Assembly (NCBI GenBank): GCA_018970025.1
Contig: JAGWXF010000015.1
Span: 109-64,108, forward strand
DNA from: Actinomycetales bacterium
GTDB taxonomy: Bacteria > Actinomycetota > Actinomycetes > S36-B12
Length of the DNA stretch: 64,000 bases
Reading direction: 5' to 3'
The notes under the pieces were generated by a model. That model was not told the DNA's origin, made no database searches, and saw only the letters and a program-made list of their open reading frames with translations. This document shows positions 18,080-49,809 of this stretch, piece after piece. Position numbers and translations under genes: made by a program. Numbering within the stretch: the stretch's first letter is position 1; every line of letters starts with the position of its first letter.

Positions 18080-19039
18080 TCAGCCCTTGCGCTTGTTCAC
18101 TTCCTCGGTCAGCTGCGGCACGACGCTGAACAGGTCTCCGACGACGCCGTAGTCAGCGAGCTCGAAGATCGGCGCCTCGGCATCCTTGTTGATCGCGACG
18201 ATGGTCTTGGAGGTCTGCATCCCCGCGCGGTGCTGGATCGCGCCGGAGATCCCGGCGGCGACATACAGCTGCGGCGAGACGGTCTTGCCCGTCTGGCCGA
18301 CCTGATACTGATGCGGATACCAGCCGGCGTCCGTGGCAGCGCGCGAGGCTCCGACCGCCGCCCCCAGGCTGTCAGCCAGCGCCTCGATCACGCCGAAGCC
18401 CTCCGGGCCGCCGACCCCTCGGCCGCCCGAGACGACGATGGAGGCCTCCGCGAGATCCGGCCGGCCACCGGCGACTGCGACCGCACGGCCGGTGATCGTG
18501 GCCTTGCGCCCCGCCTCGCTCAGGCTGACATCCAGGTCAACCCGGGCCGGCAGCCCGCCACCGGTTGCCATGGCCTCGACGGCGTTCGGGCGCACCGTGA
18601 TGATCGGGGTTCCCTTGGTGACCCGCGAGTGAACCACGGTCGAGCCGCCGAAGACGCTCTGGGTGCAGGTGGCGTCCGCGGCAATCTCCACGGCATCGGT
18701 GATGATCCCCGACTGCGTGCGCACGGCCAGCCGGCCAGCAGCCTCCTTGCCGTCCGCAGTCGACGCAACCAGGACGGCACTGGGCGAGCGCTGGGCGACC
18801 AGTGCCGCAAGGGCCTCGGCAGCGGGAGCGACCAGTGCCTCCGCGACCCCCGGGCCATCAGCGACCACGACCGTGCCTGCGCCGTACGAGCCCAGCACGG
18901 CACCCGCCTGGTCGGTGTACCCGGGGCCGATCCATACCGCGACCGGCTCGCCGATCGCGGCCGCAGCGGTCAGCAGCTCGGTCGTGACCTTCTTGACCGT
19001 GCCCGCCGCCTGCTCCACCAGAACCAGTACCTCGCCCAT
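18080..19039 (-). CDS. etfA: Electron transfer flavoprotein alpha subunit
   Basis: C-terminal FAD-binding region [19 protein letters not shown]...IVAINKD. Confidence 0.93.
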
Positions 19040-19101: not shown

Positions 19102-19881
19102 CTAGATGAGCTTCTGCTCGACGAGGTAGGACGCCACCTGGGCTCCTCCATCGCCCTCGTCGGTCACGACCGTGCCCGCAGCCTTGGCCGGGCGGGCCGC
19201 GAAGTCGGCGACCTCGCTCCATGCGCCTGACGCTCCGACTGCCGCGGCGTCCAGGCCCAGGGAGGCGATATCGAGTGACTCCACGGGCTTCTTCTTCGCC
19301 GCCATGATGCCCTTGAAGGATGGGTAGCGGGGCTCGTTGATCTTCTCGACCACGCTCAGCACGACCGGCATCGAGGCCCTGACCGAGACGGTCTCGCCGT
19401 CGCCGGCACGCTCGATCGCAACGGTCGTGCCGTCCACATCGACCTTCTGGGCGAAGGTGAGCATGGCCCAGCCGAGCCGCTCGGCCACCATCGCGGGCAC
19501 GACGGACATGCGAGCATCAGTGGACTCCGAGCCGAAGATCACCACGTCGAAATCACGGCCGTCGAGCGCACGCGCCAGGACCAGGCTGGTGGCCAGGGCA
19601 TCCGAGCCGGCGAGCCCGTCGTCGCTGACGTGGATGGCGGCATCGGCACCCATGCTGAGGGCCTTGCGCACGCTCTCAGCAGCCCGCTCCGGGCCCATCG
19701 AGACAATCGTGACCTCGCCGCCGTGCGCCTCGACCAGCCGCAGGGCCTCCTCGACGGCATACTCGTCAAGCTCGTTCAGCACGCCGTCGGCGGACTCGCG
19801 ATCCAGTCGCCGGTCGGACTCGCGCAACCGCTTCTCAGCCCAGGTGTCCGGGACCTGCTTCACGCACACCGCGATCTTCAC
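19102..19881 (-). CDS. etfB: Electron transfer flavoprotein beta subunit
   Basis: GTG 19881 preceded by GGAGGG. Reads VKIAVCVKQVPDTWAEKRL. Confidence 0.93.
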   Translation of the reverse strand: MKIAVCVKQVPDTWAEKRLRESDRRLDRESADGVLNELDEYAVEEALRLVEAHGGEVTIVSMGPERAAESVRKALSMGADAAIHVSDDGLAGSDALATSLVLARALDGRDFDVVIFGSESTDARMSVVPAMVAERLGWAMLTFAQKVDVDGTTVAIERAGDGETVSVRASMPVVLSVVEKINEPRYPSFKGIMAAKKKPVESLDIASLGLDAAAVGASGAWSEVADFAARPAKAAGTVVTDEGDGGAQVASYLVEQKLI

Positions 19882-19928: not shown

Positions 19929-19946
19929 GATAAGCGCCCGCTTATC
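19929..19946. promoter_or_regulatory. Palindrome GATAAGCG-CC-CGCTTATC in the etfB / methyltransferase divergent region
   Basis: 8-bp perfect arms read directly, 48 nt upstream of the etfB GTG. Same core as the site at 39765-39782. Confidence 0.5.
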
Positions 19947-19988
19947 GCCTGTCAGGGACAACCTAGCAAGGCCTGCGGAGACGGCCAG

Positions 19989-36383: not shown

Positions 36384-36863
36384 GTGCACGTCTCCGCGAA
36401 GGCCGACTACGGCATGCGCGCGCTCCTGGAGCTGACCGCCGCCTATGAGGGTGACCCGCGCAGGCTCGTCAAGGGCGAGGCCATCGCCACCGCCCAGGGC
36501 ATCCCGCTGAAGTTCCTGGAGGGCATCCTGCGCCAGCTGCGCCAGTCCGGGATCGTCACCAGCATGCGCGGGGCCGAGGGAGGCTATCGCCTCGACCGTG
36601 ACCCGGCCCAGATCAGCATCGCCGATGTCGTTCGGGCTCTCGACGGCCCGCTGGCCGCCGTCCGCGGCCAGCGCCCTGAGGACATCAGCTATGCAGGGTC
36701 CGCCGAGCACCTCCGCGAGGTGTGGATCGCCCTGCGGGCGTCCATGCGGCACGTCCTGGAGCACATCACCCTGACCGACGTGGCGGCTGGCCAGATCCCC
36801 GCCGAGTTCGCCCGCCTCCTGGACGAGCCGGGGGCCTGGAAGCGACGGACCGGCAGTTCCTGA
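36384..36863 (+). CDS. Rrf2 family transcriptional regulator
   Basis: GTG start. MHVSAKADYGMRALLELTA...IPLKFLEGILRQLRQSGIVTSMRGAEGGYRL. Confidence 0.88.
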   Translation: MHVSAKADYGMRALLELTAAYEGDPRRLVKGEAIATAQGIPLKFLEGILRQLRQSGIVTSMRGAEGGYRLDRDPAQISIADVVRALDGPLAAVRGQRPEDISYAGSAEHLREVWIALRASMRHVLEHITLTDVAAGQIPAEFARLLDEPGAWKRRTGSS

Positions 36864-37841: not shown

Positions 37842-39035
37842 CTAGGCGGGCACGCGCAGGAGGAGCGCGTCGCCCTGGCCTCCGCCGCCGCACAGGGCCG
37901 CCGCACCCAGGCCCCCGCCGCGCCGGCGCAGCTCATTGACCAGGTGCACGACGATCCGCGCTCCGGACATGCCCACCGGGTGGCCGAGTGCGATCGCGCC
38001 TCCGTCGACGTTGACGATCTCCTCGCTGACGCCCAGGGCGCGCATCGACGCGATCCCGACTGCCGCGAAGGCCTCGTTGATCTCCAGCAGGTCCAGGTCG
38101 CTGACCGCGATGCCCTCCCGCTCGCAGGCACGCCTGATGGCATTCGCGGGCTGCTCGTGCAGGGAGGCATCCGGGCCCGCGACGACCCCGTGCGCGCCGA
38201 TCGCCGCCAGCGGCGCAATGCCGAGCTCCGCGGCCTTGGCCCGGCTCATCACCACGACCGCAGCACCGCCGTCGGAGATCTGCGATGCGTTCCCCGCGGT
38301 GATGGTGCCGTCCTTGGCGAATGCCGGCCGCAGCGAGCCCAGGGACTCCTCGGTGGTCTCCGCTCGGATGCCCTCGTCGCGCACGATCTCGACCGGGTCG
38401 CCCTTGCGCTGCGGGACGCTCACCGCGACGATCTCCTCGGCGAACCGGCCCTCCTGCTGGGCCCGCGCCGCGCGCTGATGGGACTGCGCGGCGAATGCGT
38501 CCTGCTCCTGGCGGGTCAGGGAGTAGCGGGCGTTGTACCGCTCCGTGCCCTCCCCCATGGCGCACGCGTCGAACGAGCAGGTCAGCGCATCGAACGCCAT
38601 GGAGTCCTGCATCTGCCATGGCCCGTACTTGACCCCCTCGCGGGAGCCCATCAGCAGGTGCGGGGCGTTCGTCATGGACTCCATCCCGCCGGCGACCACG
38701 ACGTCGAACTCCCCGGCCCGGATGAGCTGGTCGGCCAGGGCGATCGCGTCGATCCCGGACAGGCACACCTTGTTGATCGTGATCGCCGGGACGCCCATGC
38801 CCAGGCCAGCCTTGACCGCAGCCTGCCGCGCCGGGTTCTGCCCGGCCCCGGCGAGCAGGACCTGCCCCATGATCACGTAGTCGACCTCGGATCCGCTCAG
38901 CCCGGCGCGCTCGAGTGCGGCCTTGATCGCGAATCCGCCGAGCTCGGCGGCGCTGAAGCCGCTCAGGGCCCCCTGCAGGCGGCCCATCGGGGTCCGTGCC
39001 CCGGAGACGATCACCGAGCCCTGGTCGAATGCCAT
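37842..39035 (-). CDS. Acetyl-CoA C-acetyltransferase (thiolase II)
   Basis: [11 protein letters not shown] (active Cys), [20 protein letters not shown]. Confidence 0.93.
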
Positions 39036-39063
39036 GTTTCACTCCCATTCCCTGGTCTGCTCG

Positions 39064-39081
39064 GGTGACAACATAGTCACC
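39064..39081. promoter_or_regulatory. Inverted repeat GGTGAC-AACATA-GTCACC abutting the epimerase ATG
   Basis: 6-bp perfect arms read directly. The repeat ends 1 nt before ATG 39082, with no SD visible. Confidence 0.25.
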
Positions 39082-39513
39082 ATGGATTCCATCCTCACGC
39101 GCATCGATCATGTGGGCATCGCCGTCGCGGACCTCGAGGCAGCCAAGGCGTTCTATCGGGACGCCTTCGGACTTGCGGTCGTCCATGAGGAGGTCAATGA
39201 GGAGCAGGGGGTGCGCGAGGCCATGCTGGCGGTCGGGGAGGGCGGGTCGTGCATCCAGCTCCTGGCACCGCTGACCCCGGACTCGACGATTGCCAGGTTC
39301 CTGGATCGCTCCGGGCCGGGGATCCAGCAGGTCGCGTACGGGGTCGACGACGTTGTCGCCGCCGCGGAGCACCTGCGCCGGGCCGGCGTGCGCATGCTCT
39401 ACGACGCACCCAGGCGCGGCACGGCCGGCTCGCTGGTCAACTTCGCCCACCCCAAGGACTGCGGGGGCGTGCTCGTGGAGCTCGTGCAGGCGCCCGCTGG
39501 CTCGGGCCACTGA
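39082..39513 (+). CDS. Methylmalonyl-CoA epimerase (VOC/glyoxalase fold)
   Basis: 143 aa. RIDHVGIAVADLEAAKAFY...GIQQVAYGVDD...HPKDCGGVLVELV. Confidence 0.88.
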   Translation: MDSILTRIDHVGIAVADLEAAKAFYRDAFGLAVVHEEVNEEQGVREAMLAVGEGGSCIQLLAPLTPDSTIARFLDRSGPGIQQVAYGVDDVVAAAEHLRRAGVRMLYDAPRRGTAGSLVNFAHPKDCGGVLVELVQAPAGSGH

Positions 39514-39547
39514 CACGGGCGACGGTAGACACAGGAGCCCGATCGGC

Positions 39548-39769
39548 ATGGACGCGCCTGACCTGTCGCTCGCCGGCTGGACGCTGACCGACGAGCAGTT
39601 CACCGCTGCGGTCGCCATCCTCGGCGGCATCCTGGGCGTGGTCATGCTCAATGCCCTGACGCGGCGGGCCACCCGCGTGGTCATCGGCCTGGCCATGGGA
39701 GGCCTGGTCACCGCAGCGTGGTGGTGGGCGGCCCGGACGGGCCATCTCCCCGGCCTGCCGCTAGGGTAA
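39548..39769 (+). CDS. Small membrane protein (73 aa, 2 TM), hypothetical
   Basis: AGGAG 10 nt upstream of the ATG. G/C-rich third positions and two hydrophobic helices. Confidence 0.45.
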   Translation: MDAPDLSLAGWTLTDEQFTAAVAILGGILGVVMLNALTRRATRVVIGLAMGGLVTAAWWWAARTGHLPGLPLG

Positions 39770-39782
39770 GCGATCGCTTACC
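39765..39782. promoter_or_regulatory. Perfect 18-bp palindrome GGTAAGCGATCGCTTACC, 27 nt upstream of ccr
   Basis: All 9 base pairs checked by hand. Overlaps the TAA stop of the small ORF. Could alternatively fold as a 7-bp stem/GATC loop followed by TTT. Confidence 0.55.
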
Positions 39783-39808
39783 TTTCGTCGGCCGATCCGG
39801 GAGTCCCC

Positions 39809-41143
39809 ATGCAGCACATCCTCGATGCGATTCTCGCGGGCGCGGACCGGCCGGCCTTCGAGAGCCTGGACATCCCCGAGTCCTACCTCGGGGTGACCAT
39901 CCATAAGAACGAGGAGGCCATGTTCGAGGCGATCCCCGCCCAGCAGCGGGATCCCCGCTCCTCCCTGCACCTGGACGAAGTCCCGGTTCCCGAGCTCGCA
40001 CCCGGCGAGGCCCTCATCGCGGTGATGGCCTCATCGATCAACTACAACACCGTCTGGAGCTCGATCTTCGAGCCGGTCAGCACCTTCGGCTTCCTGGCCC
40101 GCTATGGCAGGAGCCACGCGGATGCCCTGCGGCACGACCTGCCCTATCAGGTGATCGGCTCGGACGCCGCGGGCGTGGTCCTGCGCACCGGCCCGGGCGT
40201 CAATGCCTGGAAGCCAGGGGACGCCGTGGTGGCCCACTGCCTGAGCGTGGAGCTGGAGTCGCCCCTCGGCCATGACGACACGATGCTCGACCCCGAGCAG
40301 CGGATCTGGGGCTTCGAGACCAACTTCGGCGGGATGGCCCAGCTCGCGATCGTGAAGTCCAATCAGCTGCTGCCCAAGCCAGGGCACCTCACCTGGGAGG
40401 AGGCCGCCAGCCCCGGGCTGGTCAACTCGACCGCCTACCGGCAGCTGGTCTCTCGCAACGGCGCCGGCATGAAGCAGGGCGACATCGTGCTCATCTGGGG
40501 CGCTTCGGGTGGCCTGGGCTCCTACGCCACCCAGATGGCGGTGAATGGCGGTGCCGTGCCGGTCTGCGTGGTCTCCAGCCCGGAGAAGGCGCAGCTGTGC
40601 CGGGACATGGGCGCCGAGCTCGTCATCGACCGCCAGGCCGAGGGCTATCGGTTCTGGAAGGACGAGCAGACCCAGGACCCCAAGGAGTGGCAGCGGTTCG
40701 GCCGCCGGATCCGGGAGCTGACCGGCGGGGATGACGTCGACATCGTCTTCGAGCACCCGGGTCGGGAGACCTTCGGCGCCAGCGTCTACGTCGCCCGCAA
40801 GGGCGGCACCATCGTGACCTGCGCGTCGACCAGCGGCTTCATGCACGAGTACGACAACCGCTACCTGTGGATGAACCTCAAGCGGATCGTCGGCAGCCAC
40901 TTCGCCAACTACCGGGAGGCCTACGAGGCAAACCGGCTCGTCAGCCTCGGACGCATCCACCCGACCCTGTCGAAGACGTTCCCGCTCGACCAGGCCGGCC
41001 AGGCGGCCTACGAGGTGCACCGCAACCTGCACCAGGGCAAGGTCGGGCTGCTGGCCCTGGCACCCAGCGAGGGCCTGGGGGTGACGAGGCCGGAGCTTCG
41101 CGAGCGTCACCTGACGGCCATCAATCGTTTCCGTGAGCGCTGA
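39809..41143 (+). CDS. ccr: Crotonyl-CoA carboxylase/reductase
   Basis: 444 aa MDR-type enzyme with Ccr-typical N-terminal region (LGVTIHKNEEAMF...), INYNTVWSSIFEP, WGFETNFGGMAQ, WGASGGLGSYATQ. Confidence 0.9.
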   Translation: MQHILDAILAGADRPAFESLDIPESYLGVTIHKNEEAMFEAIPAQQRDPRSSLHLDEVPVPELAPGEALIAVMASSINYNTVWSSIFEPVSTFGFLARYGRSHADALRHDLPYQVIGSDAAGVVLRTGPGVNAWKPGDAVVAHCLSVELESPLGHDDTMLDPEQRIWGFETNFGGMAQLAIVKSNQLLPKPGHLTWEEAASPGLVNSTAYRQLVSRNGAGMKQGDIVLIWGASGGLGSYATQMAVNGGAVPVCVVSSPEKAQLCRDMGAELVIDRQAEGYRFWKDEQTQDPKEWQRFGRRIRELTGGDDVDIVFEHPGRETFGASVYVARKGGTIVTCASTSGFMHEYDNRYLWMNLKRIVGSHFANYREAYEANRLVSLGRIHPTLSKTFPLDQAGQAAYEVHRNLHQGKVGLLALAPSEGLGVTRPELRERHLTAINRFRER

Positions 41144-45196: not shown

Positions 45197-46969
45197 CTAG
45201 GCGTACGTGCGAAAGCCGCGACCGGTCTTGCGCCCGAGGTAGCCGGCCGTGACCAGGTGCTCCAGCCGGGGTGCCGGGGCGAATCCGGGCTCGCGGAACT
45301 CCAGGTACAGCGTCCGCTGGATCGCCAGCGAGACATCCAGGCCGACGACGTCGAGCAGCTCGAACGGGCCCATCGGATAGCCGCACCCGCGCTTCATCGC
45401 CAGGTCGATGTCGTCGGCGCTGGCGTAGTTGGCCTCCAGCATGCGAACGGCGTCATTGAGGTACGGGAACAGCAGGGCGTTGACGATGAAGCCGGCACGA
45501 TCACCGCACCGAACGGCGTGCTTGCCGATCCGCTCGCACAGTGCCATGCAGGTCATGGCCACCGCCTCGGAGGTCGACACCGTGCTGACGACCTCGACCA
45601 GGCGCATCATCGGCGCCGGGTTGAAGAAGTGCAGCCCGATGACGTCCTGCGGCCGCACGGTCGCGGCCGCGAGCTCGATCACCGGCAGGCTGGAGGTCGT
45701 GGTCGCCAGGATCACGCCGGGCCTGCAGATCTCGTCCAGGTTCTCGAACAGGGCCCGCTTGACGTCGACATCCTCGACGACCGCCTCGACCGCGAGGTCG
45801 ACATCGGACAGATCCTCCAGCACCGTGGTGCCCCGAACCCTGGCGAGCGCAGCATCACGCTCATCGTCCGTGAGGTTGCCCCGCTGCACGGCCTTCTCCA
45901 GCGACTTGCCCAGGGCCTTGCGTACGGCCTCCACCTTCTGCTCCGAGCGTGCCTGGTAGACGACGTCGATCCCGGCCTTGGCGAAGACCTCGATGATCCC
46001 GGTCGCCATGGTCCCCGACCCGACGACGCCGACGCGCATGATCTCGGCCGCGCCCGCCCCTGACGTCACCGGCCCCGGGGTCTGCGTATCCGGCACGACC
46101 GTGGGCGACTGCGGCCCGTCGTAGCTGTAGAACCCACGGCCGGACTTGCGGCCCTTCAGCCCGGCCGTGACGAGCTGCTTGAGGATGGGGCTCGGGGCGT
46201 GCAGTCGATCACGGCCCTGCTTGTACATCGTGTCGAGGATCTCGTAGGCGGTGTCCAGGCCGATCAGGTCGAGCAGGGCCAGCGGGCCCATCGGCAGGCC
46301 GCAGCCCAGCCGCATCGCCTCGTCGATGTCCTCGCGGGTTGCGTACCGCTGCTCGTACATCGATGCCGCATGGTTGAGGTACCCGAACAGCAGGGCATTG
46401 GCGATGAACCCGGCCTTGTCGCCGACCACCACCGGCTCCTTGCCCAGGGATCGGGCGAAGTCGGCAACCTGATCGACGACCGCATCCGCCGAGACCACCG
46501 TTCGGACGATCTCGACGAAGGCCTGCACCGGTGCGGGGTTGAAGAAGTGCAGCCCGACGACCTGGGCTGGGCGACCGGTCGCCACCGAGATATCGGTGAC
46601 CGACAGCGAAGACGTGTTGGTCGCGAGCACGGCCTCGGGCCTGACGATCGCGTCGATGGCCGCGAACAGCTCCCGCTTGAGGTCCAGCCGCTCGGGGACG
46701 GCCTCGATCACCAGGTCCGCATCGGCCAGGCCCGACAGGTCCGTGGTGAAGTGCACCCTGCCGAGGAGATCATCGCCCTGATCTGCGGTCATCTTCCCGC
46801 GGCTCACCGCGCGAGCGGTGGAGCCAGCCAGTCGCTCCCGTCCGCGCTGCAGGCTCTCCTGCGACAGCTCGACCGCGATCACGGGGATGCCGCTCCGAGC
46901 GATGACCTCCGCAATGCCCGCACCCATGGTTCCCAGGCCGACCACGCCAACCCGCTGCATCTGGCTCAT
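45197..46969 (-). CDS. Tandem (two-module) 3-hydroxyacyl/3-hydroxybutyryl-CoA dehydrogenase
   Basis: ATG 46969 preceded by GAGGAG. Two complete copies: VGVVGLGTMGAGIA...HFFNPAP...GFIANAL and VGVVGSGTMATGII...HFFNPAP...GFIVNAL, joined by a Pro/Thr linker. Confidence 0.9.
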   Translation of the reverse strand: MSQMQRVGVVGLGTMGAGIAEVIARSGIPVIAVELSQESLQRGRERLAGSTARAVSRGKMTADQGDDLLGRVHFTTDLSGLADADLVIEAVPERLDLKRELFAAIDAIVRPEAVLATNTSSLSVTDISVATGRPAQVVGLHFFNPAPVQAFVEIVRTVVSADAVVDQVADFARSLGKEPVVVGDKAGFIANALLFGYLNHAASMYEQRYATREDIDEAMRLGCGLPMGPLALLDLIGLDTAYEILDTMYKQGRDRLHAPSPILKQLVTAGLKGRKSGRGFYSYDGPQSPTVVPDTQTPGPVTSGAGAAEIMRVGVVGSGTMATGIIEVFAKAGIDVVYQARSEQKVEAVRKALGKSLEKAVQRGNLTDDERDAALARVRGTTVLEDLSDVDLAVEAVVEDVDVKRALFENLDEICRPGVILATTTSSLPVIELAAATVRPQDVIGLHFFNPAPMMRLVEVVSTVSTSEAVAMTCMALCERIGKHAVRCGDRAGFIVNALLFPYLNDAVRMLEANYASADDIDLAMKRGCGYPMGPFELLDVVGLDVSLAIQRTLYLEFREPGFAPAPRLEHLVTAGYLGRKTGRGFRTYA

Positions 46970-46983
46970 CTCCTCGATACCCC

Positions 46984-47664
46984 TTAGAACAGCCGCAGGC
47001 CCGGGTCGTCCTGGCCCCGCAGTGCCGCATAGTCGAGCACCACGCACCTGATCCCCCGATCCTGCGCGAGCACGCGGGCCTGGGGCTTGATCTCCTGGGC
47101 GGCGAGCACGCCTGCGACGGGTGCAAGCAGCGGATCGCGATTGAGCAGCTCCAGATACCGCGTCAGCTGCTCCACGCCATCGATCTCCCCACGGCGCTTG
47201 ATCTCCACCGCGACGGTCATGCCGGCACCATCCCGGCACAGCAGGTCGACCGGCCCGATAGCTGTCGGGTACTCGCGCCGGATCAGGCTCCACTGATCGC
47301 CCAGGACGCCCACATGGGCGGCCAGCAGCTGCTGCAGGTGCGCCTCGACGCCGTCCTTGCGCAGGCCCGGATCGAGGCCGAGCTCATGCGCGCTCTCGTG
47401 CAAGGTCTGGTGCACCGTGATCACCAGCTGCTCGCCGGCCTTGTTCTCCACCACCCAGATGGCCTCGTCCTGATCTGCCTCGGGCGCGCGGACCCGAAGC
47501 GAGCACGGCGGGCTCATCCAGTTCAGCGGCTTGTACGAGCCGCCGTCGGAGTGCACGAGGACGGAGCCGTCCGCCTTCATCATGATCACCCGGACCGCCT
47601 CCGGCAGGTGCGCCGACAGGCGCCCGGCGTAGTCGACCGTGCATCGGGCAATGACGATCCGCAC
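46984..47664 (-). CDS. nucS: Endonuclease NucS (EndoMS)
   Basis: GTG 47664. [21 protein letters not shown]...[24 protein letters not shown]. Confidence 0.93.
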
Positions 47665-47686: not shown

Positions 47687-49750
47687 TCACCGGCCGGCCG
47701 ATCCGATCGGCCCAAGGCCCTTGGCATCGCGCACTACCTGCAGGACCCTGGCCATGATCGCGGTCGCATCGAAGTCCTTGGGCGTGAACACCGCCGCGAC
47801 ACCTCGGGCCTGCAGCCAGGCGGCATCCGCCTCCGGGATGATCCCGCCGACGACGACGGGGATGTCCCCGGCTCCCTGCGCCTGGAGCCCGTCGAGGATC
47901 GCGGGCACCAGGGCGCGATGGGATCCGGACAGGATCGACAGCCCGACGATGTCGACGTCCTCCTCGATCGCTGCCGCCACGATCTGCTCAGGCGTGAGCC
48001 GGATGCCCTGGTAGACGACCTCGAAGCCGGCATCGCGCGCCCGCACCGCAATCTGCTCGGCGCCATTGGAGTGCCCGTCCAGGCCTGGCTTGCCGACCAG
48101 GAATCGCACTGGGGCACCGAGTTCCTGCGCGGTGCGCGTCACATCGGCACGCACGGCAGCCATGGCGGCTCGGGCGCTCGCCGATGCCTCGTCCGCGTCG
48201 AATGCGCCGGCTGCCTCCTCCGCGCCAGCGGCAACCCGGCCCCCGGAGACCACCCCGGCGATGCCCGTCGGGGGCCGGTACTCGCCGAACACCTCGCGTA
48301 GCACCCCTGCCCACTCACCGGTCGTCACGCCGACCCGGGCGCAGGCAAGGCTTGCCGCCATCAGGTTCACCCCTGACTGCGCGTCGGCCCGCAACTGCGC
48401 CAATGCCGCATCGACTCCGGACGCATCCCGCGACGCCCGCCAGGCCGCCAGTGCGGCGATTGCCTCCTGCTCGACCGCGGGATCCACGGCCTGGATGGCC
48501 GAATCGACATCCGCGAGCAGGGGGTTCGGCTCGGACTCCTGGAACCTGTTCACGCCGACCACGACCACCTCACCGGACTCGATGGCGGCCCGTCGATCGG
48601 CATGGGACTGCACCAGCGCCTGCTTCATGTAGCCCGACTCGACCGCGGCGATCGCACCTCCCTGATCGAGGACGCGCTGCAGCTCCGCGCGAGCCTGGTC
48701 GGCCATCGTCGACACCAGTCGCTCGACGACGACGGAGCCGGTGAACAGGTCCTCGTACTCCAGCAGGTCGCTCTCGTAGGCCAGCACCTGCTGGATCCGC
48801 AGCGACCACTGCTGATCCCAGGGACGGGGCAGGCCGAGCGCCTCATTCCATGCCGGCAGCTGCACGGCGCGTGCGCGCGCATCCCTGGACAGCGTGACGG
48901 CGAGCATCTCCAGCACGATGCGCTGGACGTTGTTCTCCGGCTGGGCCTCGGTCAGCCCGAGGGAGTTGACCTGCACGCCGTACCGAAAGCGGCGCTGCGC
49001 TGGGTCCTCGACGCCGTACCGCTCCCGGGTGATCTCGTCCCACAGCAGGACGAACGCCCGCATCTTGCACATCTCCTCCACGAAGCGGACACCGGCGTTC
49101 ACGAAGAACGAGATACGGCCGACCACCTCGCCGAAGCGATCCTGGGGAACCTGCCCGCTGGCACGGACGGCATCGAGCACGGCGATCGCCGTGGCCAGGG
49201 AGAAGGCGAGCTCCTGAACGGGCGTGGCGCCGGCTTCCTGGAGGTGGTAGCTGCAGATGTTGATCGGGTTCCACTTCGGCACGGCGCGGACGCTGTAGGC
49301 GATCATGTCCGTGATCAGCCGGATGGACGGCCCCGGCGGGAAGATGTAGGTCCCGCGGGAGAGGTACTCCTTGATGATGTCGTTCTGGGTCGTGCCCTGC
49401 AGGGCGGCCTCGGGGACGCCCTGCTCCACCGCTGCGGCGACATACAGGGCGAGCAGCCACATCGCGGTCGCATTGATCGTCATGGAGGTGTTCATGCCGC
49501 CGAGGGGGATGCCCTCGAGCAGCCGGCGCATGTCGCCCAGATGCGCCACCGGCACCCCGACCTTGCCCACCTCACCGCGGGCCATGGCGGCGTCGGGGTC
49601 ATAGCCCGTCTGGGTCGGCAGGTCGAAGGCGATGCTCAGCCCGGTTTGGCCCTTGGCGAGGTTCGCCCGGTAGAGCGCGTTCGAGGCAGCCGCGGATGAA
49701 TGACCGGCGTACGTGCGAATCAGCCAGGCAGGATCCTTGGGACGAGCCAT
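47687..49750 (-). CDS. meaA: Fused B12-dependent acyl-CoA mutase, MeaA / ethylmalonyl-CoA mutase-like
   Basis: [41 protein letters not shown] (as I recall, HS and PTQTGYD are typical of MeaA/Ecm rather than MutB). C-terminal B12 domain [14 protein letters not shown]. Confidence 0.85.
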
Positions 49751-49791: not shown

Positions 49792-49809
49792 GGTGAGCAA
49801 GCGCTTAGC
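49792..49809. promoter_or_regulatory. Degenerate copy (GGTGAGCA-AG-CGCTTAGC) of the TAAGCG-N2-CGCTTA palindrome, upstream of meaA
   Basis: 13 of 16 arm positions match the ccr site by hand alignment, 42-59 nt upstream of the meaA ATG (49750). Confidence 0.35.

Follow-up and report, generated by a model that had tools for sequence, protein, structure and literature searches.

The perfect 18-bp palindrome preceding the crotonyl-CoA carboxylase/reductase gene (ccr) of an uncultured freshwater member of the Nanopelagicales very probably belongs to a set of four operators, of which it is the strongest, recognised by a single homodimeric regulator of the TetR family, the predicted product of a gene on contig C23. 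A preliminary description of this DNA had proposed that a single dimeric regulator controls an ethylmalonyl-CoA and acyl-CoA regulon, and the sites themselves, their conservation and the association of the motif with TetR genes argue for this proposal.

Genome and gene identities

The genome (G000; 2.64 Mb, 69% G+C, 39 contigs) is 89% complete, and the window, that is, the whole stretch of 64,000 nucleotides that was analysed, corresponds to contig C28. The congener used for comparison is 'Candidatus Nanopelagicales bacterium P_NANO24' (G001). Coding and intergenic DNA were separated by a home-made GC3-based gene caller; the division is approximate, with 84% of the genome called and about 16% uncalled. 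The features discussed below are collected in Table 1.

Table 1. Candidate operators, promoter elements and genes considered in the text. Positions without a contig name refer to the window.
Feature	Position	Strand	Remarks
Candidate operator 1 (ccr), GGTAAGCGATCGCTTACC	39765-39782		perfect 18-bp palindrome, 9/9 pairs complementary; strongest site
Candidate operator 2 (etfB/methyltransferase divergent region), GATAAGCGCCCGCTTATC	19929-19946		
Candidate operator 3 (meaA), GGTGAGCAAGCGCTTAGC	49792-49809		gene-ward reading GCTAAGCGCTTGCTCACC
Fourth site (mcl), GTGAGCGCTTGCTTAC	C1:10355-10370		new; outside the window, on another contig; precedes CitE/HpcH-type malyl-CoA lyase gene
-10-like hexamer TAGGGT, putative internal ccr promoter	39762-39767	+	overlaps first base of operator 1 core
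-10-like hexamer TAGGTT, putative etfB promoter	19960-19965	-	13 nt upstream of operator 2, on the etfB strand
ccr, crotonyl-CoA carboxylase/reductase	39809-41143	+	proposed regulated gene; TIGR01751 equivalog, 589.8 bits vs cut-off 378.55
73-aa membrane ORF between epimerase gene and ccr	39549-39769	+	TAA stop (39767-39769) inside operator 1
Methylmalonyl-CoA epimerase gene	39082-39513	+	upstream of ccr, same orientation; start approximate; TIGR03081, 143 bits
etfB	19102-19881	-	proposed regulated gene; Pfam ETF
etfA	18080-19039		next after etfB
meaA-type B12-dependent acyl-CoA mutase gene	47687-49750	-	proposed regulated gene; MM_CoA_mutase and B12-binding domains
698-aa ORF	45197-47293	-	two complete 3-hydroxyacyl-CoA dehydrogenase units
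Rrf2 gene	36384-36863		
TetR gene (C23 TetR)	C23:19165-19797		211 aa; outside the window; directly after the mcl-acd operon
Second TetR gene	C2:23496-24134		
Second TetR gene and class-III aminotransferase gene	C2:23496-25744		outside the window
Long inverted repeat, two copies	C1:10230-10300; C23:19870-19950		outside the window

The neighbourhood of ccr also contains meaB, thiolase, methylmalonyl-CoA epimerase, double 3-hydroxybutyryl-CoA dehydrogenase and MeaA-type mutase genes. The mutase scores under the cut-off of the methylmalonyl-CoA mutase equivalog, and the epimerase orthologue in the metagenomic relatives L269 and L271 is 143 aa long. The true start of etfB is the GTG at 19881 on the minus strand, as judged from the MKIAVCVKQVPD N-terminus conserved in 30 relatives; its divergent neighbour across operator 2 is a methyltransferase gene. 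The 698-aa ORF carries the 3HCDH_N and 3HCDH domains twice; it is a tandem fusion, or else two genes have been read together.

Orthologues of the 73-aa membrane ORF upstream of ccr are called in L269, L270 and L271 and belong to no Pfam family. The pattern MD.PDL...WTLT(D/E)EQF...A(A/C)WWW is present in G000, G001 and three metagenomic relatives, and comparable WWW-containing reading frames occur upstream of ccr in other genera of the family.

Four palindromic sites upstream of acyl-CoA genes

All four sites are intergenic palindromes of 14-18 bp with the consensus T(A/G)AGC(G/A)-N2-(C/T)GCT(T/C)A, and from the end of each core to the start codon of ccr, etfB, meaA or mcl there are 28-49 nt. 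The whole 18-bp operator 1 is separated from the ccr ATG by 26 nt, and operator 2 from the etfB GTG by 47 nt. Operator 3 lies 41 nt from the meaA ATG (49750, minus strand), its 14-bp core (49794-49807) ending 43 nt before it. At the fourth site 42 nt lie between the 14-bp core and the start of the CitE/HpcH-type lyase gene, which we take to be the mcl-type gene of the ethylmalonyl-CoA pathway. The first three sites had been listed in the preliminary description, and their positions, the complete pairing at ccr and the mismatch counts were all reproduced.

In the window, three matches with up to two mismatches were found against 0.47 expected, and three were reached in 2 of 100 shuffles. The core TAAGCGNNCGCTTA (TAAGCG-N2-CGCTTA) has two exact matches in the whole genome, at ccr and etfB, none at one mismatch and 18 at two. 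An estimated 0.06 exact matches or so are expected from base composition, both of those seen are intergenic, and none of five equally composed control palindromes is found exactly in the genome. The relaxed form TRAGCRNNYGCTYA (TRAGCR-N2-YGCTYA) occurs six times, with four intergenic matches, namely those before ccr, etfB, meaA and mcl, and two matches in coding DNA that are TGAGCA...TGCTCA variants. A genome scan allowing mismatches thus returned the intergenic and pathway-coherent placement anticipated in the preliminary description, and for the exact sites the motif is not equally frequent in coding DNA, although half of the two-mismatch matches are coding.

An exact-motif census of 60 relatives and 400 genomes of the class revealed no enrichment over the reversed control, since the family consensus described below is asymmetric (TAAGCGCTTGCTTA) and a symmetric pattern misses most real sites. 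This result for the 400 genomes, together with the abundance of two-mismatch matches and their frequent occurrence in coding DNA, would be expected if the sites were chance palindromes in a GC-rich genome. Such an origin is exceedingly improbable in view of the excess of exact intergenic matches over the expected number, the position of the four best sites, all of which precede genes of one pathway, their retention in relatives, and their rank as the top four matches of a matrix built independently from foreign sites.

A TetR-family protein encoded within the pathway gene set

Contig C1 breaks off within mcl, the rest of which is at the end of contig C23, a join suggested by synteny. The order on C23 is mcl, a gene for a 401-aa acyl-CoA dehydrogenase (acd), TetR, SDR, ADH, HAD hydrolase, MaoC hydratase, APH-like kinase and two acyl-CoA dehydrogenases, and the arrangement mcl-acd-TetR-SDR-ADH... 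is identical in G000, G001 and the metagenomic relatives L259 and L264. The emc operon of Streptomyces is organised as ccr-ecm-mcl-mch-mcd (PMC4606968), so the C23 TetR gene sits between mcd- and mch-type genes, inside the pathway gene set. The protein consists of TetR_N (PF00440) and TetR_C_24 (PF17932) domains (annotation of P0001; the same in the G001 orthologue) and is the sole member of its TetR family in the genome at E <= 1e-20; as the assembly is incomplete, it may lack a further candidate regulator. Two copies of a long inverted repeat, approximately GAGTGGCCA(C/G)CTGT(T/C)G...CGACA(A/G)(C/G)TGGCCACTC, lie on contigs C1 and C23, just after an EamA gene and after an acyl-CoA dehydrogenase gene, and may represent a repeated family of intergenic hairpins or terminators.

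The link between the motif and this protein comes from other genomes. In two of the 400 genomes of the class, G456 (AGATTCTAAGCGATCGCTTAGAATCT) and G467, the exact motif separates a TetR gene from an acyl-CoA gene in divergent orientation. The TetR proteins encoded there find a full-length match in G000 only in the C23 TetR (39-45% identity), besides one weak match on contig C10 confined to the helix-turn-helix, and they have in common with it the helix-turn-helix GFH.TTTRD...AGMS.AA.YVHY.SKE. Species-representative genomes, searched with an alignment of these TetR proteins, yielded at least 582 relatives, of which the best 80 loci were taken, leaving 79 without that of G001 itself. A CTAAGCGCTTGCTTAG-like site with at most two mismatches is present no more than 300 nt upstream of the TetR gene at 69 of these 79 loci, compared with 0-1 for composition-matched controls; a fifth control, TTAGCG-N2-CGCTAA, gave 16 matches, being within two mismatches of the motif and hence not independent. 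The 79 loci include Streptomyces, Amycolatopsis, Nocardioides, Nocardia, Gordonia, Micromonospora and Mycobacterium aquaticum. The consensus operator of the family is CTAAGCGCTTGCTTAG, and the site upstream of the TetR gene is presumably autoregulatory across the family.

A weight matrix was constructed from 77 foreign sites alone, which themselves score 17.2-30.4 bits. Among the 2.64 million positions of G000 its four top matches are the ccr (24.2 bits), meaA (22.7), mcl (20.5) and etfB (18.0) sites, all within the training range, while the next two (16.8 and 14.9 bits) lie in coding DNA.

Most TetR genes of the family have a site directly upstream, whereas that of G000, G001, L259 and L264 does not, and autoregulatory sites sought at all 26 TetR genes of G000 were not found. 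The site nearest to the C23 TetR gene is the one in the mcl promoter, two genes upstream; autoregulation, if any, would therefore need read-through from that promoter. The emc operon of Streptomyces was considered as a shared target of the family and set aside, as the family sites are not located at an emc operon in the one genome examined: the TetR gene there is adjacent to a gene for a 560-aa acyl-CoA dehydrogenase outside any emc operon, and no ccr, meaA or mcl was found within 13 kb. The location of these Streptomyces sites away from the emc operon indicates that control of ccr and meaA is lineage-specific. Members of the family carry only generic database names ('TetR/AcrR family'), and none reaches the cut-off of an NCBIfam equivalog (best score 49.7 bits against a cut-off of 250).

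The preliminary description had noted no cognate regulator next to the sites and the Rrf2 gene as the sole regulator. The former holds for the window, but a probable cognate regulator, the C23 TetR and not the Rrf2 protein, is encoded beyond it. It is nevertheless conceivable, if unlikely, that the sites are operators of another protein, of the Rrf2 or a LysR type, and that the TetR controls only its own downstream genes. The TetR gene of this lineage is without a site of its own, the Rrf2 gene is the one regulator seen in the window, and the exact 14-mer also occurs beside a coxM-like flavoprotein gene in five actinobacteria, three of them with a LysR-type gene and with no TetR noted. Against this stand the agreement of the motif with the consensus upstream of the TetR homologues and the selection of exactly these four sites by the foreign-site matrix; moreover, there is no site near the Rrf2 gene, and to our knowledge no link exists between Rrf2 proteins and TAAGCG-N2-CGCTTA.

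Other palindromes and regulators were encountered in the course of the searches. The exact 14-mer is located upstream of the gene for the coxM-like FAD-binding subunit in L150, L153, L154 and L157 and beside the LysR-type gene in L152, L154 and L157, and may serve an unrelated regulator at these loci. A second TetR of G000, encoded on contig C2, has motif-like sites in relatives (TGAACG-N2-CGTTCA), but its own conserved operator CTGAATGGCCATTCAGG marks a different system. A class-III aminotransferase gene comes after this second TetR gene, with the twin operators CTGAATGGCCATTCAGG and CTGAGTGACCATTCAGG between them, and the arrangement is kept as TGAACG-N2-CGTTCA in three other genera (L143, L144 and L145).

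Conservation of the sites

In relatives the sites form conserved islands between diverged flanks. G001 and L270 carry the complete ccr site. L269 and L271 have retained the sequence GGTAA and the whole right half CGCTTACC, with a left half reading TAATCA; these two sites score only 13-16 bits, under the training range of the foreign-site matrix. The meaA site belongs to a 19-nt block, CTAAGCGCTTGCTCACCTG, that is identical in G001 with different flanks, and the mcl block CTAG(T/C/G)AT(G/C)TGAGCGCTTGCTTA is kept in G000, G001, L259 and L264. The etfB site is retained as GATAAGCGAGCGCTTATC in the closest relative found, L267 (EtfB 97% identical), where the sole change concerns the free central dinucleotide and the DNA from the site to the ribosome-binding site is essentially unalignable; it is absent in G001 and its clade. 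The conservation upstream of orthologous genes looked for after the preliminary description is therefore borne out for ccr and meaA and only partly for etfB.

In L268 (EtfB 83% identical) the position of the etfB operator, 1430-1455, is occupied by CCTGAGCGAGCAACCGCTCAGG, in which the half-sites TGAGCG/CGCTCA are the same and the spacer is 6 nt instead of 2.

Other genera of the Nanopelagicales have different palindromes upstream of etfB and ccr, suggesting that the TAAGCG-type regulon is lineage-specific. In other families of the order (L009-L029 and L047-L060) these are of the GGTTAC-N6-GTAACC type, for example GGTTACCGGGCAGTAACC and AGTTACTCGTGAGTAACC, and resemble the published BkaR core GTTA-N8-TAAC; in those lineages another TetR may control etfB and ccr.

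The ccr palindrome as an RNA hairpin

The ccr palindrome could also be read solely as an RNA stem-loop, a terminator or stabiliser of the message of the small ORF, with an incidental likeness to the other sites. It overlaps the stop codon of this ORF, and the sense RNA folds strongly both in G000 (z = -3.4) and in G001 (14-bp stem, z = -4.95), where the arms reach 15 bp. However, no U-tract or terminator-like site was found in 39000-39900, the tail being CCTTTCGTCGG, and L270, a near relative of G001, already lacks the intact arm extension seen in G001. Little of the hairpin is left in L269 and L271 (-8 to -11 compared with -23 to -28 kcal/mol), while CGCTTACC is kept, and comparison of L269, L271 and L270 revealed no conservation of the stem by compensatory change. 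The etfB and meaA sites fold no better than shuffles (z = -1.2 and -0.4, respectively) and are situated in promoter regions with no gene end there, and three of the sites cannot be terminators; the same motif is, in addition, tied to a TetR family across the phylum. A hairpin as the only function of the ccr site is thus very unlikely, and the terminator reading, which the preliminary description had named among the cases that would overturn its proposal, fails on the missing U-tract and the unconserved hairpin. A secondary RNA role at ccr beside the operator role is possible.

Comparison with known regulators

A TetR protein with a palindromic operator is a standard, textbook arrangement. The motif itself, this TetR family, or a regulator of the actinobacterial ethylmalonyl-CoA pathway, was not found described in the open-access literature, where a search with the motif string returned the AtuR preprint only. 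AtuR of Pseudomonas is a TetR repressor of the atu cluster for acyclic terpenes and fatty acids; its EMSA-supported operator is TACAAACCAAGCGCTTGCTTGGTA, its targets include acyl-CoA dehydrogenase and carboxylase genes, and fatty acids release it (bioRxiv 10.1101/2025.09.24.678253). As far as sequence can tell, this is the closest described operator: a 12-nt core, AAGCGCTTGCTT, is common to it, the family consensus and the meaA site of G000, and the mcl site carries GAGCGCTTGCTT. The two systems differ in the outer base of the half-site, CAAGCG in AtuR and TAAGCG here. AtuR is also proteobacterial and controls the atu cluster rather than the ethylmalonyl-CoA pathway.

The nearest named solved relatives of the C23 TetR by sequence are KstR2, FadR and PaaR/PfmR, with KstR2 matching at E = 1e-12 and a fatty-acid metabolism regulator at 2e-11. 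KstR2, FadR (Bacillus, Thermus) and PaaR/PfmR (Thermus) bind as dimers to palindromes of 14-16 bp, several of them with a 2-nt centre, and are released by acyl-CoA; the operators are AnCAAGnnCTTGnT for KstR2 and CNAACGNNCGTTNG for PaaR. Their half-sites differ from those described here, and their regulons concern steroids, long-chain fatty acids and phenylacetate.

For ccr of the ethylmalonyl-CoA pathway, the only regulator that was found cited in the open-access literature is CcrR, a TetR-family activator in Methylobacterium extorquens (Hu & Lidstrom 2012, cited in PMC4606968). As described there, it is likewise a TetR-family protein at the ccr promoter of this pathway. Compared by this description only, CcrR is an alphaproteobacterial activator, whereas in G000 four promoters carry sites, whose position points to repression.

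BkaR (Rv2506/MSMEG_4718), a mycobacterial TetR repressor of branched-chain keto-acid genes (PMC3920632), is a similar case, a dimeric TetR protein of actinobacteria whose operator is palindromic and which acts on genes for acyl-CoA carboxylase, dehydrogenase and thiolase. However, its motif GTTA-N-T-N4-A-N-TAAC is unrelated to TAAGCG-N2-CGCTTA and matches none of the four sites, and BkaR was rejected as the regulator.

Proposed mechanism

In the proposed scheme we infer that the protein binds the sites, that it represses and does not activate, and what its ligand is. A TetR dimer would occupy sites that overlap or closely follow the -10 and start regions in the promoters of ccr, mcl-acd, meaA and etfBA, and the bound dimer would block transcription. 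A short-chain acyl-CoA intermediate would then bind to the C-terminal domain and release the protein from DNA, and the ethylmalonyl-CoA pathway would be switched on together with its electron acceptor ETF.

The promoter elements were read by eye. All four species have, upstream of mcl, a -10-like hexamer, TAG(T/C/G)AT, whose end lies one base before the 14-bp core; the operator would therefore cover the transcription start. The hexamer TAGGGT upstream of ccr is not conserved in G001. The putative promoter block upstream of etfB, TTGCTAGGTT, is conserved as TTGCTA(G/C)(G/A)TT in G001, L265, L267 and L268, and at meaA the site would be close to the -35 position of a possible -10 element, TACGCT. 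All these placements are consistent with a TetR dimer that represses by steric hindrance.

Among the closest proteins of solved structure are KstR2, FadR, DarR and two unnamed structural-genomics proteins. KstR2, FadR and DarR respond to acyl-CoA or fatty-acid ligands; given these relatives and the acyl-CoA enzymes among the targets, an acyl-CoA ligand is expected. The four operons make functional sense as one regulon, in which ccr, the mutase and the lyase/dehydrogenase genes represent pathway steps and ETF accepts electrons from the acyl-CoA dehydrogenases. The ccr site, the sole perfect palindrome and the best-scoring one, fits the role of ccr as the committed step.

Biological significance

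The ethylmalonyl-CoA pathway serves acetate assimilation in many actinobacteria and supplies ethylmalonyl-CoA for polyketides. The emc operon of Streptomyces responds to acetate (PMC4606968). In this freshwater actinobacterium a repressor appears to be in place that would switch the acetate-assimilating pathway on and off. There is about an even chance that the TetR family, with hundreds of members across Actinomycetota, represents an undescribed short-chain acyl-CoA sensor that was recruited in one Nanopelagicales lineage to the whole ethylmalonyl-CoA pathway (ccr, meaA, mcl-mcd) and ETF. The gain is a testable pair, the C23 TetR gene and a 14-bp consensus, which could be used in regulon annotation, for acyl-CoA biosensors and in the study of regulon rewiring in genome-streamlined freshwater Nanopelagicales. 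If the proposal is true, no regulator of the ethylmalonyl-CoA pathway would have been known in Actinobacteria before the C23 TetR, which would probably be related to AtuR in the way it recognises DNA.
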